NCBI GenBank assembly: GCA_964489705.1
Contig: CAZAZQ010000015.1
Location: 3,393-67,392, forward strand
DNA length: 64,000 nucleotides
From: an uncultured Ignavibacteriales bacterium
GTDB taxonomy: Bacteria; Zixibacteria; MSB-5A5; GN15; FEB-12
Direction: 5' to 3'
Shown: positions 13,062 through 34,165 of the stretch, piece by piece
How positions within the stretch are numbered: position 1 is the stretch's first letter
Layout of the letters: the number at the start of each line of letters is the position of its first letter
Notes under the pieces: generated by a model
The model's database searches: none
What the model saw: the letters and a program-made list of their open reading frames with translations, nothing else
Told to the model about the DNA's origin: nothing
Program-made: the position numbers and the translations under genes

Positions 13062-13065
13062 CATC

Positions 13066-18026: not shown

Positions 18027-19151
18027 ATGGCTCTTATGTCCGAACAACAGATACGCATTCTTGTGGTGGACGACTCGGCGTTCATGCGCAAAGCATTGAG
18101 CATGATGCTCGAATCCGATCCGAGCATCAAGGTCGTCGGCACCGCCCGCGACGGAGCCGAAGGAGTCGAGAAAGTCAAGCTCCTCAAGCCGGACTTGGTC
18201 ACCATGGACATCGAAATGCCGCGCATGGACGGCTTAGCCGCCTTGCGGGAGATTATGACCACCAACCCGGTGCCGGTCATGATGGTTTCCTCTTTGACGA
18301 CGGAAGGGGCGGATGCCACCATGAAGGCGCTGGAAATGGGCGCGGTGGATTTCATCCCCAAGCAGTTGTCATACGTAAGCCTCGATATCGTCAAAATCAA
18401 AGAAGAACTGCTGGCGAAAATAAAGGATATTGTTCGGCGCAAGAATATCCTGATGGCGCGGTATAAAGTTCGCGCTCTCGGTTCTCCAAAACAAGCTGCG
18501 ACGACACCGACAGCTTCCCGTCCCACCACACCCTCAACGCGGGTGCCGACTGCCGGAGGCAAAACCGCCGCCAAAAAACATCATGTCATCAACATTATCA
18601 GTATAGGTTCTTCGACAGGAGGACCGCTGGCGCTTCAGACGGTTATTGCCAACCTGCCGCGGAACTTGCCGGTGCCGATTCTCATCGCTCAGCACATGCC
18701 GCCGATGTTCACCAAGTCGCTTGCCGAGCGGTTGGACGCCCTCGCCCAGTTGAAGGTGAAGGAAGCCGAAGACGGGGAGTGGACTCAACCCGGAAGCGTC
18801 TATATTGCTCCCGGCGGCAAGCACTTGACGGTACGGAAGGTGGGCTCTCGTAGTCAACTGATGGTGTCGCCGGAGCCGAAAGATACGTTGTATCATCCCT
18901 GCGTCGATATCCTGATGCTTTCTGTCGCCGAGGCGTTCGGCGGCTTTGCCATGGGGGTTATTCTGACCGGCATGGGAGATAACGGCGTCGTGGGATTAAA
19001 AAAGCTTAAAGAAAAGGGCGGCGTGGTTATCGCCCAAGATGAAGCATCCAGCGTCGTCTATGGGATGCCTCGTGCGGTGGTGGAAGCAAAGCTGCCGGAT
19101 GCGGTAGCGTCTCTTGAGGACATTCCCGCCGAAATTGCCAGCTACTTTTAA
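18027..19151 (+). CDS. cheB: Protein-glutamate methylesterase/glutaminase CheB (REC plus esterase)
   Basis: REC domain (ILVVDDSAFMR, LVTMDIEMPRMDG), a Pro/Thr-rich linker, and an esterase domain (IGSSTGGP, QHMP, GMGDNG, VYGMP). Confidence 0.95.
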   Translation: MALMSEQQIRILVVDDSAFMRKALSMMLESDPSIKVVGTARDGAEGVEKVKLLKPDLVTMDIEMPRMDGLAALREIMTTNPVPVMMVSSLTTEGADATMKALEMGAVDFIPKQLSYVSLDIVKIKEELLAKIKDIVRRKNILMARYKVRALGSPKQAATTPTASRPTTPSTRVPTAGGKTAAKKHHVINIISIGSSTGGPLALQTVIANLPRNLPVPILIAQHMPPMFTKSLAERLDALAQLKVKEAEDGEWTQPGSVYIAPGGKHLTVRKVGSRSQLMVSPEPKDTLYHPCVDILMLSVAEAFGGFAMGVILTGMGDNGVVGLKKLKEKGGVVIAQDEASSVVYGMPRAVVEAKLPDAVASLEDIPAEIASYF

Positions 19152-19712: not shown

Positions 19713-19885
19713 GGGTTGAAAGAGCATAGCTGGACGGTTTCTTGCGGAACAAATCGTCGGCAAAATATGTCTATCTTATTGTATGGAAACTGCCGACAAA
19801 GGAACGAGACGTGAAAAGAATTGTTTTACTTGCCATAGGGTGGGTGTTACTTGTCGCGGTAAGCGGATGGTCTCAGGAGAAGAAA

Positions 19886-20737
19886 ATGGCATACCATGAG
19901 TTGAGCCCGGAAGAAGAACGGGTTATTATCCATAAAGGAACCGAGCCCCCTTTCAGTGGGGAATACTATTTGCATAGTGAGAAGGGTACCTATGTATGCA
20001 AACGATGTGGGACGCCGTTGTTTCGCTCTGACGACAAATTCGATGCCGGGTGCGGCTGGCCTAGTTTTGACGATGCGTTGCCCGGGGCTGTCAAACAAGT
20101 GCCGGATGCCGATGGCAGGCGGATGGAAATTGTCTGTGCCCGCTGTGGGGCACACTTGGGACATGTGTTCACAGGTGAAGGATTTACGGAGAAAAATGTC
20201 CGTCACTGCGTCAATTCCATTTCGTTGAATTTTATTCCTTCTGAAGAGAAAGTGAAAATGAAAAAAGCGTATTTTGCCGGAGGGTGTTTTTGGGGGGTGG
20301 AGTACTATTTTCAGCAGGTTCCGGGAGTGCTCTCGACACAGGTGGGATATATGGGCGGAAAGGTCGAAAATCCGACATACCATCAAGTTTGTACGGGGAA
20401 AACGGGGCATGTGGAAACCGTCGAGGTTACTTTCGACCCGGCTCAGGTTACCTATGAGGAACTGGCAAAGCTGTTTTTTGAAATTCACGACCCGACCCAA
20501 GAGGATCGACAAGGTCCCGACATCGGCGAGCAGTACCGTTCCGTTGTTTTTTGTGTAGACGACGAGCAACGCGAAACCGCCGAACGGCTGATTCATATCC
20601 TCAAGGAAAAGGGGTACGACGTGGTGACGAAGGTTGAACCTGCTCAGACCTTTTGGGAAGCGGAAGACTATCATCAAGAGTATTACAGAAAAAATCACGG
20701 ACAGCCGTATTGCCATTTCCGACAGAAGAAGTTTTAA
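19886..20737 (+). CDS. msrAB: Bifunctional methionine sulfoxide reductase MsrB-MsrA fusion
   Basis: MsrB half: CxxC pair, GWPSF and RHCVNS. MsrA half: GGCFWGVEYYF, GHVE.V.V.FDP and YHQEYY. ATG 19886 has AGGAG 7 nt upstream. In-frame upstream starts (GTG 19811, TTG 19742) would add a signal-like segment. Confidence 0.85.
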   Translation: MAYHELSPEEERVIIHKGTEPPFSGEYYLHSEKGTYVCKRCGTPLFRSDDKFDAGCGWPSFDDALPGAVKQVPDADGRRMEIVCARCGAHLGHVFTGEGFTEKNVRHCVNSISLNFIPSEEKVKMKKAYFAGGCFWGVEYYFQQVPGVLSTQVGYMGGKVENPTYHQVCTGKTGHVETVEVTFDPAQVTYEELAKLFFEIHDPTQEDRQGPDIGEQYRSVVFCVDDEQRETAERLIHILKEKGYDVVTKVEPAQTFWEAEDYHQEYYRKNHGQPYCHFRQKKF

Positions 20738-20933: not shown

Positions 20934-21803
20934 ATGAAAAAGAGCACATTTAATGCCAGAGGCTTGACTTCCTTTTTTATGACGTTCGGTTTCTTGGTCA
21001 TGTCCGTTACCGGTATCATTTTGTATTTTGAACCACAGGGGCGGGTCGCCTATTGGGTGACCTGGAGATTCCTTGGATTGACAAAAACGGATTGGGACAA
21101 TATTCATATTCTCTCCAGTCTTCTTTTCGTGGTGGCGGGTATTTTTCACCTCTATTTTAATTGGAAACCTCTCATGCACTACTTACGAGACAAAGTTGCC
21201 GGCGGTATTAGATTGAAACGAGAGTTTGCCGTGAGTATTGCCGGGTTGCTCATTGTTGTGGTGAGTGCGCTCTATCATGTTCCGCCGGTGGGGTATTTGC
21301 TTGACTTTAACGAATATCTCAAAGGGCTGTGGGTGTTTTCGCCCGAATATGAACCCCCCTTCGGTCATGCGGAGTTACTTTCGTTGAAAGTGTTTACCAA
21401 AAAGATGGATATTGACCTGACGAAAGCAAAGGCGGAGCTGAATAAGAACGGCATTAAAATAGTGAGCGATACCCTTTCCCTTGAAGAAATCGCCAGAGCC
21501 AACAATGTTTCACCGAAGGACTTGTATATGATAATAAAAAAGTACGAGTCTGTCCCAAATGGAGAATTTCCTCGGAGCTATACGCCGGAGGAGGTCGAGT
21601 TGGAGTTTGCCGGTTCCAACTTGGGAAGCAAGACGCTGAAAGTAATGTGCGCTAAAACCGGCGTGGATATGGAAACGGCACAAAAGCGATTGGCGGTGAA
21701 GGGATATGAAATGAGTGAAGATGATACTTTCAAAAAAGTTGCCGATAGGTATGGGGTTACGCCGATGGATATCTTGAAGACGGTGTTGGTTGCTGAGAAG
21801 TAA
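20934..21803 (+). CDS. Membrane protein: three N-terminal TM helices with conserved His (tentatively DUF4405-like) plus a duplicated soluble C-terminal module
   Basis: GAGGAG RBS upstream. TM segments with NIHILSSLLFVVAGIFHLYFNW. The C-terminal half contains two roughly 55-aa repeats (149-203 and 233-285). The family assignment is from memory only. Confidence 0.45.
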   Translation: MKKSTFNARGLTSFFMTFGFLVMSVTGIILYFEPQGRVAYWVTWRFLGLTKTDWDNIHILSSLLFVVAGIFHLYFNWKPLMHYLRDKVAGGIRLKREFAVSIAGLLIVVVSALYHVPPVGYLLDFNEYLKGLWVFSPEYEPPFGHAELLSLKVFTKKMDIDLTKAKAELNKNGIKIVSDTLSLEEIARANNVSPKDLYMIIKKYESVPNGEFPRSYTPEEVELEFAGSNLGSKTLKVMCAKTGVDMETAQKRLAVKGYEMSEDDTFKKVADRYGVTPMDILKTVLVAEK

Positions 21804-21927
21804 CCGCACCGTTTTCTTCCTTTTTTCTCCACTATCCACTAAAGTATCGCATGATGCGAAAAAGGCATTTTCTTTTTTAGCCGTCCCATATCTATTAATG
21901 AGAGAAAAAAGCGGGAAGTTTTTTCGC

Positions 21928-21956
21928 TTGACTTGATTTGTCACGGGGCATACATT
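21928..21956 (+). promoter_or_regulatory. Candidate sigma70-type promoter of the 12-gene cassette operon
   Basis: TTGACT (21928-21933), a 17-nt spacer and TACATT (21951-21956). This is the only good -35/-10 pair I see in the 288-bp gap upstream of 22092. Confidence 0.35.
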
Positions 21957-22091
21957 CACAAAAGTTATGTGAAGTTGGTTTTGAAGTACCAACGTGCCTA
22001 TTTCTGATAAACAGGTGAATTGCCTTGTGAGTGTTATACGGTTTTGCCTGTCCAGGCGGCGCTCATAGGGGAAACGTGAGGATAGTGCAAC

Positions 22092-23354
22092 TTGAAGTAT
22101 TTCACGTACACAACCAAACGACAGAGAGTTGGTTGGGGTTGTCTCTTGCTTATCGCTCTTTCCCTTTTTCCTTTTTCTTTCCTTCACGCCCAAGACGATA
22201 CGACGAAAACACAAGCGGTCGTCATTCCTCCGGACAGTATCCCTGAAGAATATTATCCTTTGCCGCCCACTAACGTCCGGGTAAAAGACGCCCCCAACGA
22301 CGCCGGTGGAACAGTGATTATCAGTTGGGATTTGTCGCCGGATGATTCTCTCGGCGGGAAAGTGATGGAATATGTCGTCATGCGGAGCACCTCACCCGAC
22401 GGTCCTTTTGAAGAGTTGGGCCGCACGGTACGTGGAAACAGCAATTTTACCGATAAGCAAGCCACGACGGGGGTGAAATTTTACTATAAAGTAGTTGCCC
22501 AGAATTTTGAAAAGAAGGACAGCGAGTATCTCTGGCGGGCTTCCAGCGAATCGGAGGTGGTCGGTCCGGTGACCTCCAAGCAGCAATGGTTCAACACCCA
22601 ACGGCTGAACATCCTGATCGGCATTCTTATCTTATGCGGTGCTATTATATACTTCATCTGGGCGGCGAAATCGGGGAAAGATTTTTACATTCGCAAAATC
22701 GCCGGTATTGAAGAAGTGGAAAACGCCGTGGGGCGCGCCACGGAAATGGGCAGCACTATTTATTATATTCCCGGCATCAACGACATGGACGACGTCCAAA
22801 CGTTAGCCAGTATGACTATTCTCGGGAAGGTTGCTGCCATTGCGGCGGAAAACGGCACCCGCATCGATGTGCCGGTTGCCCGCTCGATGGTTATGGTGAC
22901 GGCGAAAGAGACGGTCAAAGAAGCCTACAGCCGGGTGGGACGGCCGGATTCGTTCCAAGAAGACCAGGTACGCTATCTCACTGACGACCAATTCGGTTAT
23001 GCGGCTGCTATCGACGGCTTGTTCGTGCGGGAAAAACCGGCGACGATTTTCCTCATCGGGGCGTTCTTTGCCGAGTCGTTGATTATGGCGGAAACCGGGA
23101 ACAGTATCGGCGCTATTCAAATCGCCGGAACGGCGATGCCGGCACAGTTGCCGTTCTTTATCGCCGCCTGCGACTACACCCTCATCGGGGAAGAGCTGTT
23201 CGCTGCTTCGGCGTATCTCTCTCGGGAGCCGAAATTGCTCGGTTCTTTGAAAGGGCAGGACGTAGGAAAGGCGGTTTTCTTGCTGGCGATTCTTATTGGA
23301 GTGGTGTTGGAGCTTTTTGGCGTGGAAGTCCACCGACTGTTTTCAGCGCAATGA
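22092..23354 (+). CDS. Cassette 1 subunit A: signal peptide, Fn3-like ectodomain, TM anchor, conserved ~230-aa partly hydrophobic C-terminal domain; function unknown
   Basis: TTG start. Signal peptide GCLLLIALSLFPFSFLHAQ. Fn3 pattern (GGTVIISWDLSPDD..YVVMR..FYYKVVAQN). TM helix LNILIGILILCGAIIYFIW. The conserved block RKIAG..GRATEMG..DDVQTLA..FFAESLIMAETG..IQIAGT..QLPFFIAACDYTLIGEELFAASAYL is shared with 25687 and 29402. Confidence 0.75.
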   Translation: MKYFTYTTKRQRVGWGCLLLIALSLFPFSFLHAQDDTTKTQAVVIPPDSIPEEYYPLPPTNVRVKDAPNDAGGTVIISWDLSPDDSLGGKVMEYVVMRSTSPDGPFEELGRTVRGNSNFTDKQATTGVKFYYKVVAQNFEKKDSEYLWRASSESEVVGPVTSKQQWFNTQRLNILIGILILCGAIIYFIWAAKSGKDFYIRKIAGIEEVENAVGRATEMGSTIYYIPGINDMDDVQTLASMTILGKVAAIAAENGTRIDVPVARSMVMVTAKETVKEAYSRVGRPDSFQEDQVRYLTDDQFGYAAAIDGLFVREKPATIFLIGAFFAESLIMAETGNSIGAIQIAGTAMPAQLPFFIAACDYTLIGEELFAASAYLSREPKLLGSLKGQDVGKAVFLLAILIGVVLELFGVEVHRLFSAQ

Positions 23355-23367
23355 GAAGGACTGAAGG

Positions 23368-24042
23368 ATGAAACGAGAAATTCCTCTGGCAATAACGTTT
23401 ATAGCAGGTATTTCCTTTGCCATTGCCTATTTTATTCCTCATTGGCCCTTTGGAAAGCTGGAAAAGTGGTTCAACGATTGGCTGGTAATTGTCTTTGCCT
23501 TTGCCATTTGGCTGGGCGCGCTGAACTTGCTGAAAATATCGTTTATGAAAATTATCAATAAGAAGTCCGATTGGCCTCATGCGGCGCTTATTATCATCTC
23601 ATTTTTCGTTATTGTCATAATCGGATTTTATGAGGGGTATCGCGGTTTGTATGCCAATCCGCCTTTTTCCTTCCGTGATCCCGGCACCGGTTTCGATTGG
23701 CTCTATGTCAACGTCTATTCGCCGCTGTCGGCAACAATGTTCGCCCTCTTGGCGTTCTTTGTCGCTTCGGCGTCGTACCGGGCTTTCCGGGCACGGAATT
23801 TCGAAGCGACCTTGCTTTTGCTCGCCGCCTTTTTCGTCATGTTGGGCCGGGTGCCTATCGGAGATTTGCTGACCTCGTGGTTGCCGAAAAGTTACCAGAT
23901 GTCTCAGTGGGCGACGTGGATTATGAACGTGTTGAATACCGCCGGTCAACGGGCGATTATGATAGGTATTGCTTTGGGGCTGGTGTCTACGTCCCTCCGA
24001 ATCATCTTGGGTCTTGAGCGTTCATACTTGGGAGGCGACTGA
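23368..24042 (+). CDS. Cassette 1 subunit B: ~220-aa polytopic membrane protein; function unknown
   Basis: About six hydrophobic segments. The motifs TMFALLAFFVASASYRAFRARN.EATLLL, GQRAIMIGI.LG and LRIILG.ERSYLG are shared with 26948 and 30936. Confidence 0.75.
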   Translation: MKREIPLAITFIAGISFAIAYFIPHWPFGKLEKWFNDWLVIVFAFAIWLGALNLLKISFMKIINKKSDWPHAALIIISFFVIVIIGFYEGYRGLYANPPFSFRDPGTGFDWLYVNVYSPLSATMFALLAFFVASASYRAFRARNFEATLLLLAAFFVMLGRVPIGDLLTSWLPKSYQMSQWATWIMNVLNTAGQRAIMIGIALGLVSTSLRIILGLERSYLGGD

Positions 24043-25025
24043 TGAATAAGAAAGAGCTTATCGCAACAATTGCCATTATTCTCTTTTTCTTGTTCTGTTA
24101 TTTTATCCTGCCGAAGCCGGTGTCGTTTTCTCCCACGGTGTCGGTCATTATCATCATCCTGATGCTCGGGGTTTTGGGTATTATCTTTGTCCGCACCGTC
24201 GCCGGTCGGTTTGTCAGTCGCCGGATGGTTTTCTTGTTGGTCGGTGTGGCGTTGTTGTTGCCGTTCTTTATGAAGTTCCCTCTGCCGATTCAAGTGTCGC
24301 CGGAAGTGCAGTCGATTTACGATGCGCTGGAAAAACTTCCGCCGGGCTCCAAGGTACTGGCGTCGTTCGACTATGATCCTCCCTCGGCGCCGGAGCTTCA
24401 ACCGATGGCGGATGCTTTTATGAAGTATGCGTTCGAACATGGGTTGAAGGTCATCATCATGGGTTTATGGCCCCAAGGTCCTCAGCAAGCGGATCAGGCG
24501 GTGCAAGCAGCGTTTGCGGAAGACCCGGAGTTGAGAAAGAAAATCAAGTACGGCGTAGACTACGTTAACTTAGGTTTCCAATCGGGGAATGAGTTCGTCA
24601 TCCTGCGGATGGGGGAAAATTTCAAGGCTATGTTCCCAACCGACTTGTATAATACTCCCTACGATTCCATTCCGTTGTTGAAAAACGTGACCAGTTTTTC
24701 CAACGTTGACTTCGGTATCAACTTCTCCGCCGGTAAGCCGGGGACGGTCGAATGGGTACAGATTGCCGTCGACCGTTACAATCTACCCATTGCGGCGGGC
24801 AATACGGCGGTGCAGGCGCCGATGGCGTATCCGTACCTGAAAGCCAATCAGTTGGTCGGGTTGATGGGAGGAATGGCTGGAGGGGCGGAATTTGAAAAAG
24901 CTACCGGTAAGATCGGAAAAGCAACGACCTATCTTCTCTCGCAGTCGTTTGCCCATATGGTAGTCATAATTTTTATCATCATCGGTAATGTTGCCTTCTT
25001 ACGTGAAAAGAGGGAGAAGTTATAA
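24042..25025 (+). CDS. Cassette 1 subunit C: membrane-anchored protein with an alpha/beta-looking soluble domain flanked by N- and C-terminal TM helices; function unknown
   Basis: Shares the motifs L.PGS.VL.SFDYDP....EL.PM, GLKVI, DYVNLG, FPTD....P.DS.P and the C-terminal TM AHMVVIIFIIIGN with 27612 and 31608. The start overlaps the B1 stop (TGATG). Confidence 0.75.
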   Translation: MNKKELIATIAIILFFLFCYFILPKPVSFSPTVSVIIIILMLGVLGIIFVRTVAGRFVSRRMVFLLVGVALLLPFFMKFPLPIQVSPEVQSIYDALEKLPPGSKVLASFDYDPPSAPELQPMADAFMKYAFEHGLKVIIMGLWPQGPQQADQAVQAAFAEDPELRKKIKYGVDYVNLGFQSGNEFVILRMGENFKAMFPTDLYNTPYDSIPLLKNVTSFSNVDFGINFSAGKPGTVEWVQIAVDRYNLPIAAGNTAVQAPMAYPYLKANQLVGLMGGMAGGAEFEKATGKIGKATTYLLSQSFAHMVVIIFIIIGNVAFLREKREKL

Positions 25026-25669
25026 TGGGTTTTTGGGATGTCTTCGGGGTCTGGTTGGCGGCGGCGCTGACGTTGGGTATTATCTCTTTTTTATATAAAG
25101 ACAACATCTTTTACAAGGCGTGTGAGGCAATCTTCGTCGGTATATCAGCCGGGTATTGGTTTATTGTCTTCTATTGGGATAACCTGTACAAAAAGTTTTG
25201 GGTGCAGGTAACCGACCCGACCAACCCGGAATGGTACGTCCCGTGGTTCGGGTTTATCCTGGGTATCTTAATGTTGACCCGGCTTTTCGGAAAAATCGGG
25301 TGGTTGTCTCGCTGGCCTCTCGCCTTTATTGTCGGGGCGGTTGCAGGCTTGTATATGATGATTTACTTCGTCTCCAACGCCATGGTACAAATCGCCGCCA
25401 CCATCGAACCATTCAGTCCGGCTCTGCTTGGCGGTTGGCAGGATATCGTCGCCAATGCGTTCATCGCCGTCGGCACTTTCTGCGGCTTGGTCTATTTCTT
25501 TTTCTCCAAGGAGCATCGTGGTTTCTTCGGAGGTGCAGCCCGCATCGGTATCTGGTTTTTGATGATTACTTTCGGTGCTTCTTTCGGATACACGGTGATG
25601 AGCCGTATGTCGCTGATGATAGGCAGGCTGGATTTCCTGTTTGGAACCTGGTTGGGAATGATAAAATAG
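25025..25669 (+). CDS. Cassette 1 subunit D: polytopic membrane protein; function unknown
   Basis: Shares the motifs SFLYKDN.FYK..E..FVG.SAGYW, LSRWPLAFIVG and YFFFSKEH.G.FG...RIGIW.LMITFGASFGYTVM.R.SL with 28533 and 32495. The start overlaps the C1 stop (TAATG). Confidence 0.75.
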   Translation: MGFWDVFGVWLAAALTLGIISFLYKDNIFYKACEAIFVGISAGYWFIVFYWDNLYKKFWVQVTDPTNPEWYVPWFGFILGILMLTRLFGKIGWLSRWPLAFIVGAVAGLYMMIYFVSNAMVQIAATIEPFSPALLGGWQDIVANAFIAVGTFCGLVYFFFSKEHRGFFGGAARIGIWFLMITFGASFGYTVMSRMSLMIGRLDFLFGTWLGMIK

Positions 25670-25686
25670 TGCTTCCGTTCAATTGG

Positions 25687-26937
25687 ATGAGTATACTTCA
25701 GAGAATTCGACTTCCCGTGTGTTTTATCGGTATTGTCTTCTTACTGCTTCCGCTGGTGGGGTGGGCGCAGGGACAACCTCCCGTCGGTGATAGCGACTCT
25801 CTCTCCCAAGATACTACTCAGGTTCTCGTCGAACCGGTAACCTCTCTGATTGCCGCCAATCACGTCTATGACGACGGGAAAATTATCGACCTGTCGTGGG
25901 TACCTTCCATTGACGATCAACCGGTCGGCGGGAAAGTGCTCGGCTACAAAGTATATAGGGTCGAAAAAGGGCGCGAGCCGGTGCTTATCGCCGAGCTTCC
26001 ACCCGGCGCCAACAGCTATCAAGACCAAACGGTGGAGCGGGAGAAAGAATATCGCTACTATGTTTCCGCTGTCTCTACGGACAACACCGAAGTGCCCTCG
26101 CGGATGACGGAATGGGTACAGGCAAAGCGGGAGTGGATAAATTTTGACAGAAAGTACCTTTTCTTGATGGCGGTGATTATCTCAGCGGCGGTCATCTATT
26201 TTGTCGAGACGGCAAAGCGGGGGAAAAAGCTTTTTGTACGGAAAATTGCCGGATTGGAAGCCATCGATGACGCCGTCGGCAGAGCGACGGAAATGGGGCG
26301 GCCGGTCTTGTTCATTCCCGGTATCCATGACATGGATGATGTCCAGACGTTGGCGGCATTGACTATCTTGGGAAGAGTTTCGCGAACCATCGCTGATTAC
26401 GACACCAAAATTTTCATGCCGGTGGCGCGTTCGCTGGTAATGACGGCGGCGCGGGAAACGATTAAAGCCTCGTACCAGGCGGCGGGACGACCGGACGCTT
26501 ATTCCGACGATATGGTCAACTATGTGACCGACGAGCAATTCGGCTATGTCGCCGCTGTGGACGGCATCATGGTGCGGGAGCGACCGGCGACCGTTTTTCT
26601 TTTAGGCGCTTTCTTTGCCGAATCGCTGATTCTGGCGGAAACCGGCAACTCGGTCGGAGCCATCCAGATTGCCGGCACGGCTCGTCCGGCGCAGTTGCCC
26701 TTTTTCATCGCCGCCTGTGATTTTACTCTCATCGGCGAGGAGTTGTTTGCCGCCTCCGCTTATTTATCGGGAGAGCCGCGGTTGTTGGGTTCTTTGAAAG
26801 GGCAGGATGTCGGGAAGGCGATTGCCATGATTGTCATAGTTCTTGGTGTGCTTGCCGTGACGGCGGCGGAAGCCTGGCATATCGGCTTCATGCAAGATAT
26901 ATACCATTGGCTGAACCAAGTATTTTCAACGAACTGA
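25687..26937 (+). CDS. Cassette 2 subunit A (paralogue of 22092..23354)
   Basis: Signal peptide LPVCFIGIVFLLLPLVGWAQG, an Fn3-like domain, a TM helix and the conserved C-terminal domain, with 139/194 identical residues to A1 by hand count. I chose ATG 25687. GTG 25669, overlapping the D1 stop, is an alternative. The track's 25198 start runs through D1 in another frame. Confidence 0.75.
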   Translation: MSILQRIRLPVCFIGIVFLLLPLVGWAQGQPPVGDSDSLSQDTTQVLVEPVTSLIAANHVYDDGKIIDLSWVPSIDDQPVGGKVLGYKVYRVEKGREPVLIAELPPGANSYQDQTVEREKEYRYYVSAVSTDNTEVPSRMTEWVQAKREWINFDRKYLFLMAVIISAAVIYFVETAKRGKKLFVRKIAGLEAIDDAVGRATEMGRPVLFIPGIHDMDDVQTLAALTILGRVSRTIADYDTKIFMPVARSLVMTAARETIKASYQAAGRPDAYSDDMVNYVTDEQFGYVAAVDGIMVRERPATVFLLGAFFAESLILAETGNSVGAIQIAGTARPAQLPFFIAACDFTLIGEELFAASAYLSGEPRLLGSLKGQDVGKAIAMIVIVLGVLAVTAAEAWHIGFMQDIYHWLNQVFSTN

Positions 26938-26947
26938 CGGGGAAACG

Positions 26948-27625
26948 ATGAGACGCTTTGTACCATTGATGATAACTTTTGTGGTCGGGACGGTATTAAT
27001 CGTCTCGGTGTTCATCCCCCCCTTTGAAAACTTGGAGCGCACCTTTACGCTCTTTTTCGATATTATCGCCGTCTTTGCGTTCTTTCTCGGCGGCGGCAAT
27101 CTCTTACGGGTGCATATCAACAAACTGCGCTACCGCAAACGGGATTGGGGCTATTCCATTGTCACGGTGCTCGGCTTTACGGTGATGTTGGTTATCGGGT
27201 TGGGGAAATTGGGAGCGCCGGGGGATATTTCCACCGCCGTTGACAACCCTGACTCGCTTTTCTATACGATTTTTGAGACGGTTCTCGTACCGTTGCAGTC
27301 GACGATGTATTCGTTGCTGGCGTTCTTTGTCGCGTCCGCGTCGTATCGCGCCTTTCGCGCCAAAAACAAAGAAGCGACGCTGCTGTTGGTGGCGGCATTT
27401 ATCATCTTGTTGGGACGGACTCCGTTCGGAACCTTGGTGACCGGCTGGATCCCCGAATCGTTTTCCCTTCTCCAAATCCCCAACCTTGCCATCTGGATTT
27501 TGAACTCTCCGAATCTTGCCGGACAACGAGCGATTATGATAGGCATCGGTCTGGGGGTGATTTCCATGTCCTTGCGGTTAATCCTCGGCGTGGAACGCTC
27601 TTACTTGGGAGATGACAATGCCTAA
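26948..27625 (+). CDS. Cassette 2 subunit B
   Basis: Colinear with B1 and B3 and carries the same motifs (STMYSLLAFFVASASYRAFRAKNKEATLLL, GQRAIMIGIGLG, LRLILGVERSYLG). Confidence 0.75.
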   Translation: MRRFVPLMITFVVGTVLIVSVFIPPFENLERTFTLFFDIIAVFAFFLGGGNLLRVHINKLRYRKRDWGYSIVTVLGFTVMLVIGLGKLGAPGDISTAVDNPDSLFYTIFETVLVPLQSTMYSLLAFFVASASYRAFRAKNKEATLLLVAAFIILLGRTPFGTLVTGWIPESFSLLQIPNLAIWILNSPNLAGQRAIMIGIGLGVISMSLRLILGVERSYLGDDNA

Positions 27626-28532
27626 CCTGGGAGTCATCATATCCTTGGGAATTGTCGTGGGCGGCTTGCTGTGGCTGCTCATCCGTTCTCTCAGCGGCAA
27701 GGAAGTGGAGCGGCGGGTGATATTCTTGTTCATCTTCGTGGCGGTGGCGGCTCCCATTCTTTTCCCCATAACTTTTCAAGAACACGCTACCCCTATCGTC
27801 AAGCGGCTCTTCGAGCGGATTGAAACTTTGCCGCCGGGCTCGCACATTCTCATCTCTTTCGATTACGACCCCGCCATGGCGCCGGAAGTGCAGCCGATGG
27901 CGAACGCTCTGTCGCGACATTGTTTGGCGAAGGGGCATAAAGTGGTCTTTATGTGCCTGTGGGCGACGGGGCAGTCGTTGTTAATGAACACCTTGGAGCA
28001 GGTAATAAAGCCGGACTTTCCGGATCTCCGTGAGGGGGTCGACTACGTCAACGTCGGCTACAAAGCAGGGAACGAAGGGGTGCTGAATGTGATTGTCTCC
28101 GATTTCAAAAAGATGTTTCCGACCGACGTGAACGGCGTGCCCTTGGATAGCGTCCCGATATTCAATGATATCAAGTCGTGCAAGGATTTTGACCTTATCC
28201 TCGCTATTGGCGGAGGGCGACCCGGACCCAAGGAGTGGGTGCTCTTTGTCGGCGATCCCGGCGGCGTGCCTATCGGTGCCGGGGTAGCGGCGGTGGTGGC
28301 GCCTCAGTTGTATCCGTATTTTCCCCGACAGGTCATCGGAATCCTCGGCGGGGTGAAAGGGGCGGCGGAATACGAGTCGGAGTTGGCACATACCTATGAG
28401 CGTTTTGCGGATATGGACAAACCCGGCTTGCGAATGATGGGACCCCAGACGCTGGCGCATATCGTCATCATGGCGTTCATACTTATCGGTAATATCGCTT
28501 TCTTCCGGAGACGAAAGAAAGGTGAAAAGTAG
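27612..28532 (+). CDS. Cassette 2 subunit C
   Basis: Colinear with C1 and C3 (LPPGSHILISFDYDPAMAPEVQPM, DYVNVGYKAGNEG, MFPTDVNGVPLDSVP, C-terminal TM AHIVIMAFILIGN). It overlaps B2 by 14 nt. Confidence 0.75.
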   Translation: MTMPNLGVIISLGIVVGGLLWLLIRSLSGKEVERRVIFLFIFVAVAAPILFPITFQEHATPIVKRLFERIETLPPGSHILISFDYDPAMAPEVQPMANALSRHCLAKGHKVVFMCLWATGQSLLMNTLEQVIKPDFPDLREGVDYVNVGYKAGNEGVLNVIVSDFKKMFPTDVNGVPLDSVPIFNDIKSCKDFDLILAIGGGRPGPKEWVLFVGDPGGVPIGAGVAAVVAPQLYPYFPRQVIGILGGVKGAAEYESELAHTYERFADMDKPGLRMMGPQTLAHIVIMAFILIGNIAFFRRRKKGEK

Positions 28533-29375
28533 GTGCGGCGCTCAACGTACATAGTGGTGGGAGTTATCGTCGTTCTCTTTGTGGCGATATGGATTTACCG
28601 GGCGATGACGCTTTCCGGAGTCGTCGAACATAACGTCCAAAAGGCGTTCTTGTTGACGGTCTCGGCGTTTTTAACGCTGTCCATCTTTTCGTTCCTCTAC
28701 AAAGACAATCCGTTTTACAAATTTGCCGAGCATCTGTTTGTCGGCGTTTCGGCGGCATACTGGATGAGCCTGGGATTTTGGTCGACGTTGGTAGGAAACC
28801 TCATCCCGCGGATTTCCGACGGTTTGTCGAACTTTTTCCGGCAGCCCATTCAACCCAGTCATAAGATTGTCGGTCCCATAGATGTCAACATCTTCTATTG
28901 GATACCGGTGGTATTGGGGTTGATGCTGTTGATGCGTCTTTCGCGGCAATACGGATGGCTCTCGCGATGGCCTCTGGCGTTCATTGTCGGCACCACCGCG
29001 GGGTTGAACTTTGTCCGCTACCTGCGGTCGGATTTTATCGTTCAGGTCTCGTCGACGTTCGTGCCTTTGCTCGGACGGGAGCCGCATCCGTGGCGGGGAA
29101 TCGGAGATTTTATTGCTCATTTAGACTTGTCGGCGACCGGACAGTTGGCGGCGATTCTTTCCAACTGGGTGATATTCTTCGGGGTGATTTGCGGGATAAT
29201 CTATTTCTTCTTTTCCAAAGAACATACCGGAATTTTCGGGCGGGCGTCCCGCATCGGTATCTGGATTCTCATGATTACCTTCGGCGCCTCGTTCGGCTAT
29301 ACCGTGATGGGGCGTATTTCTCTGTTGGTCGGGCGGATTACGTTTCTGTTCGGCGATTGGTTGGGATTGCTCTGA
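28533..29375 (+). CDS. Cassette 2 subunit D
   Basis: Colinear with D1 and D3. The GTG start abuts the C2 TAG stop. An internal ATG about 24 codons in would give an N-terminus matching D1 and D3 in length, so the extra N-terminal TM helix is uncertain. Confidence 0.7.
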   Translation: MRRSTYIVVGVIVVLFVAIWIYRAMTLSGVVEHNVQKAFLLTVSAFLTLSIFSFLYKDNPFYKFAEHLFVGVSAAYWMSLGFWSTLVGNLIPRISDGLSNFFRQPIQPSHKIVGPIDVNIFYWIPVVLGLMLLMRLSRQYGWLSRWPLAFIVGTTAGLNFVRYLRSDFIVQVSSTFVPLLGREPHPWRGIGDFIAHLDLSATGQLAAILSNWVIFFGVICGIIYFFFSKEHTGIFGRASRIGIWILMITFGASFGYTVMGRISLLVGRITFLFGDWLGLL

Positions 29376-29401
29376 GTGATTTAATATAAAGGGAGAATGG
29401 T

Positions 29402-30922
29402 ATGAAATATAAGTTCTTGATGGTGTTTCTCTTCCTTCTTGGGTGGGCGTTCTCGGTGGGGAACGCACAAGAAGCCGAGCCGGCAGCGCCCGCGGCTGCG
29501 GAAGATAGCCTGGCGACGGATTCAATCCCTCCGCCGAGGCCGGTCTCGAATCTTCAGGCGCGCGACAAGGAAAACGACCACGGCCATGCCATAGTTCTCA
29601 CATGGACCCCTTCTCCTGATGACGGCACCGGAGCCAAGACGGTTATGATGTACGAAATCTTTCGCTGGGTGCCGTACTTTATGGATACCTTGAGTGCCAT
29701 TCGAGACAGCGTCTCCCAGATGCGGGAGTATATTGCCGATATCGAAGCGTTTCTCCCGCGGGCGGAGAAACGACTCAAACGGTATCAAAAAAAGGAGGGA
29801 GAGGGTTTTGCCGATTCGGTTACGTTTTATGCCGATACGATAGCGTCATGCGAACGGTTGTTGCCGCAGTACCGAAGAAATTTGAAGATGTGGCTTAAGA
29901 AGAGAGAGGAAGCGATTGAGCATATTCCTGTTGCTCACAAGAGCTATCCGAACCAGGGGGAGTGGCGAAAAATCGGTACCGCTCTGAGCGGAGCCACAGA
30001 ATATGTGGACATCGGTTCCAAGGAGAAATCGTCCGGCGATTATCTGGCAGACTATACCGATTATTACTACCGGGTGGATGCCGTTACTTCCGATCCTGCG
30101 ATTCGTGCTTCTTCCGAGATCGCCGGTCCGGTGCAATCATACGGGCAGTTGTACCACACGGGACGAACGCCGGTGCTGGTAGCGGTGCTTATCTTTGCCG
30201 TCTTGACGATTTACTTTATCTCCAAGGCGAGACGGGGTATCGACCTGTATGTACGTCCTTTACCCGGCATTCAGGCGGTGGATGACGCTATCGGGCGCGC
30301 TACCGAGATGGGCAAGCCGATTCTGTACGTCCTCGGGTTGGGTTCCGCCGCCGATATTGCAACCATCGCTTCGTTTACAATCTTAGGGCGAGTGGCTCGC
30401 AAGGTCGCCGAGTATCAAACGAAGTTGATTGTTCCGTGTTACGATCCGATTGTCATGACGGTAGCGCAGGAAACGGTCAAAGCCGCCTATTCCGATGCGG
30501 GCCGTCCGGATGATTATGATGAAGACATCGTCTACTTCGTTACCCAATCCCAGTTTGCGTACGTGGCGGCGGTCAACGGAACGATGCTTCGGGAACGGCC
30601 TGCCACCAACATTTACATGGGAATATTCTACGCCGAGTCGCTTATCTTGGCGGAGACCGGTGCCGTGGCGGGCTCCATTCAAATTTCCGGCACCGACCAA
30701 ATCGCCCAGATTCCCTTTTTCATTGTTGCCTGCGATTATACCTTGATTGGGGAAGAGCTGTACGCCGCCTCGGCATACTTGGGGCGGGAGCCGTTGCTGC
30801 TGGGCTCATTGAAAGCACAAGACTATGCCAAAGCGTTGGTGATTATTTTGTCCATTATCGGCTTCCTTGCCGCCAACGTGGGATGGCACTCCCTCGTGAA
30901 ATTGTTCAAAGTGGTTGATTAG
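29402..30922 (+). CDS. Cassette 3 subunit A, with a ~95-aa helical insertion inside the Fn3-like ectodomain
   Basis: Signal peptide FLMVFLFLLGWAFSVGNAQ. The Fn3 strands are split by residues ~90-186 (charged, heptad-like). A TM helix follows, then the conserved C-terminal domain (GRATEMG, YAESLILAETG, IQISGT, IPFFIVACDYTLIGEELYAASAYL). Confidence 0.75.
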   Translation: MKYKFLMVFLFLLGWAFSVGNAQEAEPAAPAAAEDSLATDSIPPPRPVSNLQARDKENDHGHAIVLTWTPSPDDGTGAKTVMMYEIFRWVPYFMDTLSAIRDSVSQMREYIADIEAFLPRAEKRLKRYQKKEGEGFADSVTFYADTIASCERLLPQYRRNLKMWLKKREEAIEHIPVAHKSYPNQGEWRKIGTALSGATEYVDIGSKEKSSGDYLADYTDYYYRVDAVTSDPAIRASSEIAGPVQSYGQLYHTGRTPVLVAVLIFAVLTIYFISKARRGIDLYVRPLPGIQAVDDAIGRATEMGKPILYVLGLGSAADIATIASFTILGRVARKVAEYQTKLIVPCYDPIVMTVAQETVKAAYSDAGRPDDYDEDIVYFVTQSQFAYVAAVNGTMLRERPATNIYMGIFYAESLILAETGAVAGSIQISGTDQIAQIPFFIVACDYTLIGEELYAASAYLGREPLLLGSLKAQDYAKALVIILSIIGFLAANVGWHSLVKLFKVVD

Positions 30923-30935
30923 GAGGTGATGATAG

Positions 30936-31595
30936 ATGCGAAGACAGTTACCCCTTGCCCTGGTGTTTATTTTCGGGACGTTTATGATTTTTCAGTATTT
31001 TGTCCCTCACGAAAAGTCGGAGTGGCTTTATGAGTTCCTCTTCTCCTGGCTCTACATTATCGGGATTTTTGCGTTAGGTTTGGGAATTTGGTCGTTAGTG
31101 CGGGTTTCCGTGGGAAAAATCAAAGCTCGCGGACCGGGATGGGGCTATCCGATAGTCACGCTGGCGGGGCTTTTTCTGATGATATTTTTCGGCTTCACCG
31201 GTTACCGGGACGGCTCTTTCGGTTTTCATTTCATGACCGCCGAAGGGTTGTCGAATTATTGGTTCCGGCACTTTTTTAATTATATCCTGATTCCCATTCA
31301 GTCGACCATGTTTGCGCTGTTGGCATTCTTCATCGCTTCGGCAGCGTACCGCGCTTTCCGAGCCCGGAATATATTAGCCACGTTGCTTTTGATGTCGGCG
31401 CTGATTATGATGTTGCGCTTCAATCCGTACCTCGGACCGGTCGGTCCTATCATTGCCGATACGGCGTCGTGGTTGTTGAATGTCCCGAACTTGGCGGCGA
31501 AACGGGCGATTATTATCGGCGTCGGCTTGGGGATGGTTGCCACCGCCTTGAAAATTATTCTGGGTATCGAACGCGGTTACCTGGGGAAAGGATAA
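30936..31595 (+). CDS. Cassette 3 subunit B
   Basis: Colinear with B1 and B2 (STMFALLAFFIASAAYRAFRARN, AKRAIIIGVGLG, LKIILGIERGYLG). Confidence 0.75.
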   Translation: MRRQLPLALVFIFGTFMIFQYFVPHEKSEWLYEFLFSWLYIIGIFALGLGIWSLVRVSVGKIKARGPGWGYPIVTLAGLFLMIFFGFTGYRDGSFGFHFMTAEGLSNYWFRHFFNYILIPIQSTMFALLAFFIASAAYRAFRARNILATLLLMSALIMMLRFNPYLGPVGPIIADTASWLLNVPNLAAKRAIIIGVGLGMVATALKIILGIERGYLGKG

Positions 31596-31607
31596 GGAGG
31601 TGTCACG

Positions 31608-32489
31608 ATGAAAACGAACATCTTTGATAGAATGATGTCGCTCGACCGCCGCTGGGTCTTTCTGTTTGTTGCGGTGGTGTGCGTGGCAACCTACTTTTAT
31701 CCCTTTTCCATTCCTATCCGGGTGGATGATGAAGTAAGGTCTATCTACGAATTTATCGATACCCTCAAGCCGGGCGAGATAGTGTTTGTCGCCATCGACT
31801 ACGATCCGAATGCGTTGGCGGAGCTTCATCCGATGACTTATGCGCTGATGGAACACTGCTTTCGCAAGGACCTGAAGGTGATTATTACAGCGCTTTCGCA
31901 GAACGGTCCCGGCATGGCGGAGCAAGCTATTCTCGATATCACCGACTCTGTCCGTCAGGATAAAGAATACAACGGTGTCTTCTATAGAGGGAAAGAGATT
32001 AAGAACGGGATTGATTATACGTTCTTGGGATACAAGCCCTACTATGGGTTGGTCATTTTAGGTATGGGGCAAAACTTCCGGTTGCCTTTCCCGACCGATT
32101 ACTACGGCACTCCTCTCGATTCCATCCCCATGATGAAGGGCGTGCAAAACTACAGTCAGGTGGCGTGTGTCATCGACATTTCCGCCGGGAGCATCACCGA
32201 CGCCTGGATTTCCTACGGGCAGGGACGCTTCGGCTTCCCCTTAGCCTTGGGTTTGACCGGTGTTATGGGGGCGGATTATTACCCCTACTTGAATTCCAAA
32301 CAGGTCTTTGGAATTATGGCGGGGTTGTATGGTGCCGCCCAGTATGAGAAACTTGCCGATAATCCCGGCTTGGCGATGGACGGCATGCGGATACAAGTGT
32401 TTGCTCATATTGTGATTATCTTGTTCATTATCATGGGCAACCTGGGATTTTTCATGAGTCGGCGTGACAGAAGAAGGCTTGGGAGGTAA
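31608..32489 (+). CDS. Cassette 3 subunit C
   Basis: Colinear with C1 and C2 (LKPGEIVFVAIDYDPNALAELHPM, DYTFLGYKP, PFPTDYYGTPLDSIP, C-terminal TM AHIVIILFIIMGN). Confidence 0.75.
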   Translation: MKTNIFDRMMSLDRRWVFLFVAVVCVATYFYPFSIPIRVDDEVRSIYEFIDTLKPGEIVFVAIDYDPNALAELHPMTYALMEHCFRKDLKVIITALSQNGPGMAEQAILDITDSVRQDKEYNGVFYRGKEIKNGIDYTFLGYKPYYGLVILGMGQNFRLPFPTDYYGTPLDSIPMMKGVQNYSQVACVIDISAGSITDAWISYGQGRFGFPLALGLTGVMGADYYPYLNSKQVFGIMAGLYGAAQYEKLADNPGLAMDGMRIQVFAHIVIILFIIMGNLGFFMSRRDRRRLGR

Positions 32490-32494
32490 GTGCT

Positions 32495-33301
32495 ATGGAT
32501 TTCACGACGTTTTTATGGACAACGTTTGGGGCGTTTCTGACCCTGGCGACCTTCTCGTTCTTGTACAAGGATAATCCCTTTTACAAGTTTGCCGAGCACT
32601 TGGTGGTCGGCGTTTCCGCCGGCTATTTCGTGATTATTCTCTGGCACAACGGTTTGGTCCCGAACCTGTTTCAACGCTTAGCCGACGGCGATTGGTACTT
32701 CCTGTGGTTAAATTCTTCGGAGCCGTGGTACCTGATTCCGGCGATTCTCGGAGCGATGATGTTTACCCGTTTCTCTCGGAACTATGCGTGGGTCTCTCGT
32801 TGGCCGTTGGCACTTTATATCGGGATTGCCATGGGGGTGGGGGTGCCGCTGGTAATGGCAAACAACGTCAACCGCCAGCTCGTGGCGAGCATGAATCCCA
32901 TCGACTGGCACAACTTCTGGGGACATGGGTTCCTTGACAGCTCCGCAGGTTTTTCCCAGGCTATTATTTTCGCCGGCGCCGTTGCCGCGTTGATATATTT
33001 CTTCTTCTCCAAGGAGCATACCGGAGCCTTCGGCGCCGTTGCGAAGTTCGGCATTTGGATTTTGATGATTGGCTTCGGAGCGTCGTTCGGCTATACGGTG
33101 ATGGGGCGTATTTCCCTGTTCATCAACCGTATCCAGGATCTCAGTTTTTGGGGAACGGCGGCTTTCGACAAAACCAATCCGAATTATTCTTCCGGTTTCC
33201 TGATTGTGTTCTGGTTGGTGATTGCCGCTATCGTGGTGTATATCATTTCGGAGCTTGTCAGATTCCTTCGGCGTCCCCCGGAGCAGGAATCGACCACGTA
33301 A
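32495..33301 (+). CDS. Cassette 3 subunit D
   Basis: Colinear with D1 and D2 (FSFLYKDNPFYKFAEHLVVGVSAGYF, VSRWPLALYIG, YFFFSKEHTGAFG..FGIWILMIGFGASFGYTVMGRISL), plus an extra C-terminal TM helix. Confidence 0.75.
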   Translation: MDFTTFLWTTFGAFLTLATFSFLYKDNPFYKFAEHLVVGVSAGYFVIILWHNGLVPNLFQRLADGDWYFLWLNSSEPWYLIPAILGAMMFTRFSRNYAWVSRWPLALYIGIAMGVGVPLVMANNVNRQLVASMNPIDWHNFWGHGFLDSSAGFSQAIIFAGAVAALIYFFFSKEHTGAFGAVAKFGIWILMIGFGASFGYTVMGRISLFINRIQDLSFWGTAAFDKTNPNYSSGFLIVFWLVIAAIVVYIISELVRFLRRPPEQESTT

Positions 33302-33337
33302 AGGGAACGTGAGTTAATACTGACGATAGAACAAAAA

Positions 33338-33370
33338 GGAGCCCGCGTGAAAACGTGGGCTCCTTTTCTC
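33338..33370 (+). terminator. Rho-independent terminator closing the cassette operon
   Basis: ggagcccgcgt (33338-33348), loop gaaa, acgtgggctcc (33353-33363). The stem is 11 bp with one G-U pair and is followed by ttttctc. It lies 37 nt after the D3 stop. Confidence 0.8.
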
Positions 33371-33817: not shown

Positions 33818-34165
33818 ATGGCACGGCAGAAGAGAGAATCTACTGCAACAAAAACAACTACGCAAAGCGAAACCAAGCAGGGCAAAGAGAAGAAAAAGGG
33901 GAAGCTCTCCACCGCTGAGGCGCGTCGGGAATACCAACGCCGGTATTACCAGATGCACAAGGAAAAAGCGAAAGAGTACCAACGCCAGTACAATCTCACC
34001 CACAAGAAAAAACTGCGCAGCGGGCGTGGAAAATCGGGACAGTTGGCGCCGCGGGAAGTAGTGCGGACAACCTTTAATACCGCTGACATCATGCACGCTC
34101 CGGTTGAGAAGACCATTCGGATTCTGGAAAAAATCATCAAGGGAGAACGGTTCTTTACCATGTAG
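33818..34165 (+). CDS. Small highly basic hypothetical protein (115 aa)
   Basis: GTGAGGT RBS 9 nt upstream. The N-terminal half is Lys/Thr/Gln-rich (KTTTQSETKQGKEKKKGK; REYQRRYYQMHKEKAKEYQRQY). I recognise no family. Its coding status rests on the RBS and ORF length only. Confidence 0.45.
   Translation: MARQKRESTATKTTTQSETKQGKEKKKGKLSTAEARREYQRRYYQMHKEKAKEYQRQYNLTHKKKLRSGRGKSGQLAPREVVRTTFNTADIMHAPVEKTIRILEKIIKGERFFTM

Follow-up and report, generated by a model that had tools for sequence, protein, structure and literature searches.

Tol-Pal and ExbBD-TonB are multi-subunit inner-membrane assemblies of diderm bacteria whose domains reach into the periplasm, and they are made of two or three subunit types. 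Small proteins with six transmembrane (TM) helices and a TM-anchored protein with a periplasmic domain occur in the Nqr and Rnf complexes (NqrD/E and NqrC/RnfG, respectively), and a periplasmic domain between TM helices is found in the type VII ATP-binding cassette (ABC) mechanotransmitters MacB, LolCDE, and FtsEX. Here we describe a four-gene cassette, A-B-C-D, that is present in three consecutive copies within a 64,000-nucleotide stretch of DNA from an uncultured bacterium of the Zixibacteria (contig CAZAZQ010000015.1, positions 3,393 to 67,392; the whole stretch is referred to as the window). The four proteins very probably form one hetero-oligomeric inner-membrane complex, judged by the sequence comparisons described below. 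The four-gene system could be placed in no known kind, with B and D compared by sequence and profile. What was known already is a domain of protein A, catalogued in Pfam as DUF6754 (PF20539): the three A proteins are full-length members of this entry, which says nothing on B, C, or D, on the module, or on its copy number. New are the partners B, C, and D, the fixed module, and its copy number, and in the searchable literature we found no paper that mentions DUF6754 or PF20539 and none that describes the four-gene module.

Between positions 22092 and 33301 of the window, 12 consecutive open reading frames (ORFs) on the plus strand are joined by overlaps or by gaps of at most 26 nt. All-against-all BLASTP sorted their products into four types, A, B, C, and D, with zero similarity across types, and these follow each other three times in the same order. 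An initial examination of the DNA without database searches (the sequence-only reading) had described this arrangement with the same genes, order, and coordinates, and the ORFs and BLASTP groups bear it out, apart from one start position discussed below. It had also argued that the four genes belong together obligatorily. When 185,579 species genomes were scanned with an alignment of A, at least 572 loci were returned, the best 80 of which were analyzed. They stem from Zixibacteria, which the NCBI taxonomy places within the FCB group, from WOR-3 (now Caldifarciminota), Stahlbacteria, Fermentibacterota, Aegiribacteria, Eisenbacteria, Coatesbacteria, and Cloacimonadota, and from a few metagenome-assembled genomes (MAGs) with other labels. 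Scans with hidden Markov models found A-B-C-D wherever sequence was available, as one, two, or three cassettes. As this first test was anchored on A, it was repeated with 80 D-anchored loci from metagenome contigs, in which the order was likewise kept wherever the contig allowed. In these ~160 loci the four genes always had equal copy numbers, namely, one (WOR-3, Stahlbacteria, Fermentibacterota, and Cloacimonadota), two, or three (Zixibacteria). The few exceptions have explanations of their own: a 100-N scaffold gap in a locus with A only (L166), a chimeric join, in frame with preceding sequence that looks by eye like a piece of an ABC permease, in a locus with B-C-D only (L115), genes truncated by frameshifts in two loci (L027 and L011), and a 3.4-kb insertion in another (L132). 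The four types were thus never found as separate genes in their own right, as had been predicted.

The family is large, with at least 8000 clusters in the search with A and 2379 members at E ≤ 1e-3 in a search of 1.84 billion cluster representatives (50% identity) with a D profile. Three of the best 150 D matches, which represent independent clusters, are full-length C-D fusions of 579 to 598 amino acids (P0369, P0412, and P0459), in which the two parts are joined by a linker of ~80 to 100 residues with an additional TM helix. Fixed order, equal copy number, duplication as a unit, overlapping reading frames, and the fusions together support an obligate four-subunit complex.

Judged by their sequences, the three copies are old paralogues that are positionally orthologous across arrays. 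Copies are 47 to 51% identical for A, 40 to 48% for B, 32 to 41% for C, and 41 to 47% for D (BLASTP), and a hand count of 139 identical residues out of 194 for A1 and A2 in the sequence-only reading was reproduced exactly (A1 201-394 versus A2 185-378). At the DNA level the identity between copies is 50 to 57%, with the same codon at only 37 to 54% of identical residues. The longest direct DNA repeats among the copies are 60 to 80% identical, and the repeat comparison found no long near-identical repeats in the array. A contig from an independent assembly (Logan, run SRR15988951) is 100% identical to positions 21117-28852, which span the junction of cassettes 1 and 2. The same 12-gene, three-copy array was found in at least 20 other MAG or genome loci, and a three-copy array on a 2.26-Mb Zixibacteria contig shares with the window the synteny downstream, including the pyruvate phosphate dikinase (PPDK) gene. 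That the triplication arose in assembly or only very recently, both of which the sequence-only reading had already dismissed, is next to impossible: the copies are diverged, a contig of a second assembly matches base for base, independent arrays show positional orthology, and nothing was found in favor of such an origin.

Across the 21 arrays, which come from independent studies, copies 1, 2, and 3 match the copy at the same position in ~90 to 100% of the comparisons for all four types. Position-specific lengths are kept as well, with a long A3 (median, 466 amino acids), C1 longer than C2 and C2 longer than C3, and a short D1. Positional orthology and the kept length traits indicate that two duplications of the whole cassette preceded the radiation of these Zixibacteria, in which the three copies have been retained since then. 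The single-copy cassettes of other phyla are similar to copies 1 and 2; a resemblance to copy 3 is very rare. The closest MAG relative (L002, JAADHM010000212.1) has copies 1 and 3 only, with the same PPDK synteny, which indicates that copy 2 can be lost.

The sequence-only reading could name no family for any of the proteins. This holds for B, C, and D, which fall into no catalogued family, but not for A, as A1, A2, and A3 match PF20539 with 396.6, 404.1, and 387.2 bits, respectively (E values of 1e-116 to 1e-121; gathering score, 27 bits), over model positions 2-256 of 257. B, C, and D gave no match to PF20539 in the Pfam scan. A1 is laid out as a signal peptide, a periplasmic fibronectin type III (Fn3) domain, a TM helix (~residues 173-192), the cytoplasmic DUF6754 domain, and a C-terminal TM helix; in A generally, the signal peptide is of the cleaved type, and the first TM helix is followed by a stretch rich in Lys and Arg, an alpha/beta domain of ~200 residues in the cytoplasm, and the final TM helix. 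Single A sequences score below the Pfam cutoff for Fn3 (A2, 16.4 versus 25 bits). The family profile of A matches Fn3 domains of titin and neogenin among PDB sequences (single-domain E values of 2.5e-6 to 5.7e-5), and an AlphaFold2 model of A2 matches Fn3 structures with target-normalized TM-scores of 0.7 to 0.8. In this model the mean predicted local distance difference test score (pLDDT) is 74 overall and above 90 in the Fn3 part, the Fn3 and TM segments being confident, and Fn3 dominates the Foldseek matches of A in the PDB. By profile and by modeled fold, A carries the extracytoplasmic Fn3-like domain that had been read from the sequence.

Over 52 A sequences of several phyla, 53 columns are invariant, nearly all of them in DUF6754. 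The invariant polar residues there include GRATEMG, GRPD, AESL..ETG, C360-D361, and E367-E368. Among the three A proteins of the window, the cytoplasmic part is 57 to 70% identical and the periplasmic part 27 to 38%, which indicates that the inside is constant and the outside variable. Public homologues of A are named "DUF6754 domain-containing," "fibronectin type III domain-containing," or "hypothetical." The most conserved helices of the A and B families, PAT[IV]FL[IL]GAFFAES in A (23038-23078, 26585-26625, and 30600-30640) and SATMFALLAFFVAS in B (23729-23769 and 27297-27337), have 8 of 13 residues in common and 63 to 78% DNA identity over 41 nt, the families being otherwise unrelated; this likeness could be due to chance or to a common packing motif.

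TM and topology signals confirmed the earlier statement that all four types are membrane proteins. B, C, and D had no match in Pfam or NCBIfam, and their family profiles none in the PDB; the PADLOC protein models gave no match for A1, B1, C1, D1, D2, or D3. Scanning family members one by one against Pfam (46 B, 47 C, and 66 D proteins; E ≤ 5) revealed no recurrent usable weak family. The matches to 7TMR-DISM_7TM, TMD0_ABC, and DUF3704 were rejected as hydrophobic-helix noise, and Radical_SAM, seen in 6 of 47 cases, was rejected as well. The C homologues found are all named "hypothetical protein." B spans the membrane with six TM helices, and its N and C termini both lie on the cytoplasmic side. 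In one Zixibacteria MAG, B3 (L033:15349-17121) contains between TM3 and TM4 an insertion of ~370 residues with repeats that look by eye like FG-GAP/VCBS. Such repeats are normally extracytoplasmic, so that the insertion, if of this kind, would place the TM3-TM4 loop of B in the periplasm. On this by-eye reading of the repeats, the insertion shows that periplasmic modules have been swapped into the complex.

An alpha/beta domain between terminal TM helices had been proposed for C, and the AlphaFold2 model of C1 agrees with it (pLDDT, 92.3; predicted TM-score, 0.86), in which a Rossmann-like domain of six strands is followed by a long TM helix at the C terminus. When this model was compared with the PDB by Foldseek, the matches were generic alpha/beta folds only (best E value, 6e-4; TM-scores, 0.2 to 0.3; root mean square deviation [RMSD], 14 to 17 Å). 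By positive-inside counts, the two termini of C are cytoplasmic and its domain is hence periplasmic. The invariant residues of C (D110, D112, P113, E118, G146, D173, G178, G231, G253, G273/277/280, and E285) sit at the C-terminal ends of the modeled strands. In doubly wound alpha/beta folds these strand ends are the usual ligand-binding edge, and the invariant residues of C may therefore line a putative binding site. D has a core of five or six TM helices, to which other lineages add an N-terminal TM helix with a periplasmic extension or an insertion of 100 to 400 residues in the central loop. Polar residues conserved to at least 90% within hydrophobic stretches of A to D are confined to C, T, K, S, H, N, and R, without any Asp or Glu. 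The four types are not detectably related to each other, as hhalign found no relationship of A with C or of B with D. A collinearity of the cytoplasmic domain of A with the periplasmic domain of C, noticed by eye, remained unsupported (relaxed local hhalign over 165 columns, P = 0.27).

Neither profile nor structure searches placed A to D in a characterized transporter, secretion, or motor family, as the sequence-only reading had expected. Tol-Pal and ExbBD-TonB are recurrent neighbors of the cassette in Zixibacteria, WOR-3, and Fermentibacterota; however, A to D comprise four subunit types, show no sequence or profile similarity to them, and include a large conserved cytoplasmic alpha/beta domain that Tol and Exb lack. 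No Pfam match of A to D to the stator families PF01618 and PF02472 was found, whereas neighbors in related loci match these at E values of 1e-25 to 1e-30. A kinship to Mot, Tol, or Exb proteins was rejected, since in hhalign comparisons with alignments of TolQ and TolR taken from these loci no type exceeded a probability of 1.1%; a conserved intramembrane acidic residue of the TolR/ExbD/MotB type was not found in A to D. The likeness to Nqr/Rnf is purely architectural, B and D resembling NqrD/E and C resembling NqrC/RnfG, and it extends to a neighboring protein, N382 (described below), with its weak Pfam matches to the barrel-sandwich hybrid domain of NqrA_N and RnfC_N. A to D nevertheless have no Rnf or Nqr match in Pfam or NCBIfam and contain no conserved Cys pairs or clusters, no flavin mononucleotide attachment or flavinylation motif, and no iron-sulfur motif; C360 of A is the sole invariant Cys.

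With the type VII ABC systems the cassette shares the periplasmic domain of C between TM helices, a likely envelope role, and a possible ATPase nearby, but A to D lack an ABC nucleotide-binding domain and any FtsX or MacB_PCD match, and the candidate ATPase is of the ASKHA type (GlmL family). Neither the 12 proteins nor the flanking genes matched ABC_tran or an ABC permease in Pfam or NCBIfam, and a weak sub-threshold match to TMD0_ABC in 21 of 46 B proteins was set aside as consistent with hydrophobic-helix noise. For tripartite transporters of the TRAP and TTT types, no DctP/TctC, DctQ/DctM, or TctB/TctA match was seen in these databases, and the C model is a single Rossmann-like lobe. A GT-B glycosyltransferase was rejected for C, which has one alpha/beta domain, predicted to be periplasmic, and is without a glycosyltransferase match in Pfam (TreT and OtsA: TM-scores of 0.24 to 0.26, RMSD of ~16 Å). 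An origin from a defense system, phage, or plasmid was likewise rejected, as PADLOC gave no match, tblastn with A1 was negative in phage and plasmid collections, and the genes around the array are housekeeping genes.

The genes next to the cassette in related genomes follow recurrent patterns. In Fermentibacterota, Eisenbacteria, Coatesbacteria, and some Zixibacteria, the genes s140, s141, a GlmL-like gene, and N382 precede A-B-C-D in the same direction, with 4-nt gaps or overlaps between N382 and A. In many Zixibacteria, a divergent operon GlmL-like-P252-N382-TolQ-TolR-TolA-TolB-Pal-CpoB lies 300 to 500 nt from A1. Two loci (L047:6099-9883 and L166:7351-16359) illustrate how the conserved but unannotated set of s140, s141, the GlmL-family ATPase gene, and N382 either precedes the cassette or heads the complete TolQRAB-Pal-CpoB operon. 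ExbB-ExbD-ExbD-TonB follows ~3 kb downstream of D in WOR-3 and Fermentibacterota, the space between D and ExbB being occupied by a DUF4388/PATAN gene in WOR-3 and by a gene for a TonB-dependent-receptor-like protein in Fermentibacterota. In one WOR-3 locus (L042:13150-15995), four small unannotated genes separate the DUF4388/PATAN gene, which follows the cassette in the same direction, from ExbB-ExbD-ExbD-TonB. Of the 80 loci with enough flank, 36 have the GlmL-like/N382 pair no farther than 6 kb upstream from their first A gene, and all three N382-anchored look-ups led to a gene adjoining a cassette.

The GlmL-like protein (620 amino acids) matches PF13941 with an E value of 1.6e-129, and the NCBIfam models for GlmL stay below their cutoffs, which together point to a distinct subfamily of the ASKHA ATPase group; both phosphate-binding motifs can be read in its sequence. 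N382 shows weak but recurrent matches to barrel-sandwich hybrid domains among 30 members (Biotin_lipoyl in 26, RnfC_N in 14, and NqrA_N in 8) and has a KOW-like end. Its mean column identity is 68%, and it forms at least 8000 clusters, the matches listed being named "hypothetical" or misnamed NusG. Searches of the PDB with N382 and the GlmL-like protein gave no informative match. Other genes were seen near the cassette in single Zixibacteria genomes: the spacer of a two-cassette locus (L035:13947-15817) contains genes that look by eye NfeD-like, SPFH/stomatin-like, and CBS-domain-like, and in another genome an M4 metallopeptidase with a Por_Secre_tail (type IX secretion signal) is encoded between N382 and the first cassette (L164:11357-13873).

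We favor, with a probability of roughly 0.45, the reading that A-B-C-D is one inner-membrane complex with a constant cytoplasmic engine and variable periplasmic modules that serves cell-envelope upkeep beside Tol-Pal or Ton. The DUF6754 domain of A and the membrane core of B and D would be the constant engine, and the fast-evolving periplasmic pieces (Fn3, the C domain, and the inserts in B and D) would match each isoform to a periplasmic partner or substrate of its own. C would be a mirror image of A, with its Rossmann-like domain held between TM anchors on the periplasmic side. Working alongside Tol-Pal or ExbBD-TonB, the complex might carry a component of the envelope between cytoplasm and periplasm or relay energy or information between the two, with the GlmL-family ASKHA ATPase and N382 as likely cytoplasmic partners. 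We infer the envelope role from the neighborhood in other phyla, and the physical A:B:C:D complex, the partners, and the functional specialization of the three isoforms are likewise inferences. A further-reaching version, which we regard as doubtful, sees in A to D, the ATPase, and N382 a previously unrecognized trans-envelope machine of FCB-type diderms with three specialized versions in Zixibacteria. If true, this machine would be of the rank of Tol-Pal, Lol, or Lpt, its cytoplasmic engine driving periplasmic work.

Several observations weigh against the favored reading. A Walker A or other energy-coupling motif was not found in A to D. The part of A that is best conserved (A2 286-343) is the one modeled with the least confidence, which would be in keeping with a surface that takes up its fold on partner subunits. 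The window and its closest three-copy relatives have no GlmL-like, N382, or Tol-Pal genes nearby and have lost the linkage, which is frequent and found across phyla but not obligatory; it could be synteny that related phyla have inherited. Each genome region has a single GlmL-like/N382 pair but up to three cassettes, a mismatch that argues against a fixed stoichiometric partner. Finally, as B and D were compared by sequence and profile only, a remote fold kinship of these two proteins to a known transporter family is possible.

Other readings of the same data are less probable. It is unlikely that A to D form the inner-membrane importer of a TonB-dependent uptake and utilization locus, with C as the membrane-tethered binding domain in the periplasm, B and D as the permease path, and A gating or coupling transport by way of its cytoplasmic domain; the companion proposal that the GlmL-like protein and N382 are cytoplasmic enzymes processing the imported compound, with three isoforms for three substrates, is unlikely too. 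Such an importer would account for the receptor-like gene that starts 146 to 312 nt after D, ahead of ExbB-ExbD-ExbD-TonB, in Fermentibacterota, yet the neighbor in Zixibacteria is a complete Tol-Pal operon and not an uptake receptor. The conserved acidic residues of C at the ligand-binding edge of the Rossmann-like sheet would suit a binding domain; however, C has one lobe and not the two-lobe fold of binding proteins, and its best PDB matches have TM-scores of at most 0.3. The two polytopic subunits with conserved polar and charged residues and the periplasmic parts that diverge fastest between isoforms fit transport of different substrates, and the GlmL family lies within the hydantoinase/oxoprolinase ATPase branch; on the other side, A to D are dissimilar to every transporter family in Pfam, NCBIfam, and the PDB, and the extreme cross-phylum conservation of the cytoplasmic domain of A fits housekeeping better. 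A membrane-bound enzyme that makes or modifies an envelope polymer or lipid, with catalysis in DUF6754, in C, or in both and a flippase-like path through B and D, is quite improbable. The dense invariant polar residues of DUF6754 may look catalytic, the weak best Foldseek matches of C are GT-B halves (TreT, OtsA, and WaaG; E values of 6e-4 to 7e-3), and positions 1047-2516 of the window encode a glycosyltransferase of the PMT family, albeit 20 kb away. These structural matches are of the generic quality noted above, though, and neither a glycosyltransferase, acyltransferase, or polyprenyl-phosphate motif or Pfam match within A to D nor conserved sugar-nucleotide or lipid-carrier genes beside the cassette were found.

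It is very unlikely that the proteins are a transmembrane sensing or scaffolding assembly that reads the state of the envelope through its Fn3, Rossmann-like, and propeller modules in the periplasm and reports via DUF6754 without translocating anything. Its features would be variable periplasmic decorations (Fn3, the FG-GAP/VCBS-like insertion seen by eye in B3 of L033, and the D extensions) on a constant cytoplasmic output domain, and a regulator gene (DUF4388/PATAN) does follow D directly in WOR-3, as does an NfeD-SPFH scaffold pair, by eye, lie between the cassettes of L035; but most lineages have no kinase, cyclase, HAMP, PAS, or receiver domain within the cassette or beside it, and four obligate subunits with ~16 to 18 TM helices exceed what known sensors need. 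That the four proteins are merely syntenic and have separate jobs is highly improbable: hhalign does not relate the types to each other, but their order and equal copy number are kept over at least six phylum-level lineages and ~160 loci, the unit was duplicated twice, reading frames overlap, and C-D fusions exist.

The A-D family is large and strictly organized across candidate phyla whose cell biology is essentially unknown. Dozens of residues invariant across phyla and an order kept through two unit duplications are usually marks of core machinery, and the recurrence beside Tol-Pal or ExbBD-TonB and an actin-fold ATPase suggests an unrecognized part of the building or maintenance of the diderm envelope. 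With a function assigned, thousands of genes now called "hypothetical" would be annotated at one stroke, and a new type of membrane-complex architecture could come to light. One cassette-bearing MAG is labeled Calditrichaeota; the Calditrichota include a cultured species, Caldithrix abyssi. The first pure culture of the WOR-3 lineage (strain sy37) was reported in 2025 (PMC12285271). WOR-3 MAGs carry single-copy cassettes, and if the cultured strain has one, experiments become possible.

The features of the array are listed in Table 1. The gene junctions given in the sequence-only reading are all correct (TGATG at 24040-24044, TAATG at 25023-25027, the 14-nt overlap of B2 and C2, TAG and GTG at 28530-28535, and a maximum gap of 26 nt), and the overlapping or abutting genes fit translational coupling. 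Its start for A2 at 25684, with a product of 417 amino acids, has to be corrected, as this position reads TGG; the alternative GTG start, which is used in the public gene call, overlaps the stop codon of D1 as TAGTG. Of the single promoter and single strong terminator that it proposed, the terminator stands as the top match of the regional terminator scan and closes the 12-gene unit. The promoter candidate was not above the shuffle background in a sigma-70-type scan, FCB-type promoters being outside its coverage. An Rfam scan of the 5′ region upstream of A1 found no element and thus no riboswitch or RNA leader. The 12 genes would be cotranscribed from a single promoter.

Table 1. Features of the three-copy A-B-C-D array (positions within the window)
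Feature	Position	Strand	Description
Promoter candidate	21928..21956	+	Weak, sigma-70-like, upstream of A1; TTGACT-17-TACATT, 9/12 consensus match
A1	22092..23354	+	420 aa, TTG start; PF20539, E 4.8e-119
B1	23368..24042	+	224 aa, six TM helices, conserved LLAFFVASASYRAFRARN motif
C1	24042..25025	+	327 aa; three N-terminal TM helices, periplasmic six-stranded Rossmann-like domain, one C-terminal TM helix
D1	25025..25669	+	214 aa, five or six TM helices; motifs SFLYKDNPFYK, SRWPLAF, YFFFSKEH, FGASFGYTVM
A2	25687..26937	+	416 aa from ATG 25687 (alternative GTG 25669, 422 aa); PF20539, E 2.5e-121
B2	26948..27625	+	225 aa
C2	27612..28532	+	306 aa, two N-terminal TM helices
D2	28533..29375	+	280 aa, GTG start; additional N-terminal TM helix, longer central loop
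A3	29402..30922	+	506 aa; helical insertion of ~90 aa within the Fn3 domain; PF20539, E 3.6e-116
B3	30936..31595	+	219 aa
C3	31608..32489	+	293 aa, one N-terminal TM helix
D3	32495..33301	+	268 aa, additional C-terminal TM helix
Intrinsic terminator	33334-33367 (listed to 33377)	+	15-bp stem with 8 G-C pairs, 4-nt loop, T-rich tail

The flanks of the array in the window are of housekeeping character, with Che genes, the MsrB-MsrA gene, and a gene for a DUF4405 protein upstream and a small basic ORF, PPDK, and an ADP-forming acetyl-CoA synthetase gene downstream; no mobile-element genes were found in them. The DUF4405 membrane protein, encoded directly upstream of A1 (20934-21803), has a long soluble tail, and the MsrB-MsrA fusion before it (19742-20737) has an N-terminal hydrophobic leader and is probably exported. 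The chemotaxis cluster farther upstream (10774-19151) encodes a HEAT-repeat protein, CheR, CheA, and CheB, and the organism is therefore probably motile or chemotactic. Between the terminator and PPDK, positions 33818-34165 encode a very basic protein of 115 amino acids without a Pfam family, and a related locus (L162) has a gene for 116 amino acids at this place. In a tblastn search with the TonB-dependent-receptor-like protein of L047, a fragment at 473-919 on the minus strand showed 32% identity over 154 amino acids. Also on the minus strand, a multihaem cytochrome of 627 amino acids with c7-, c3-, and MtrC-like matches (54958-56841) adjoins a BNR/sortilin-repeat protein of 1044 amino acids (57630-60764).

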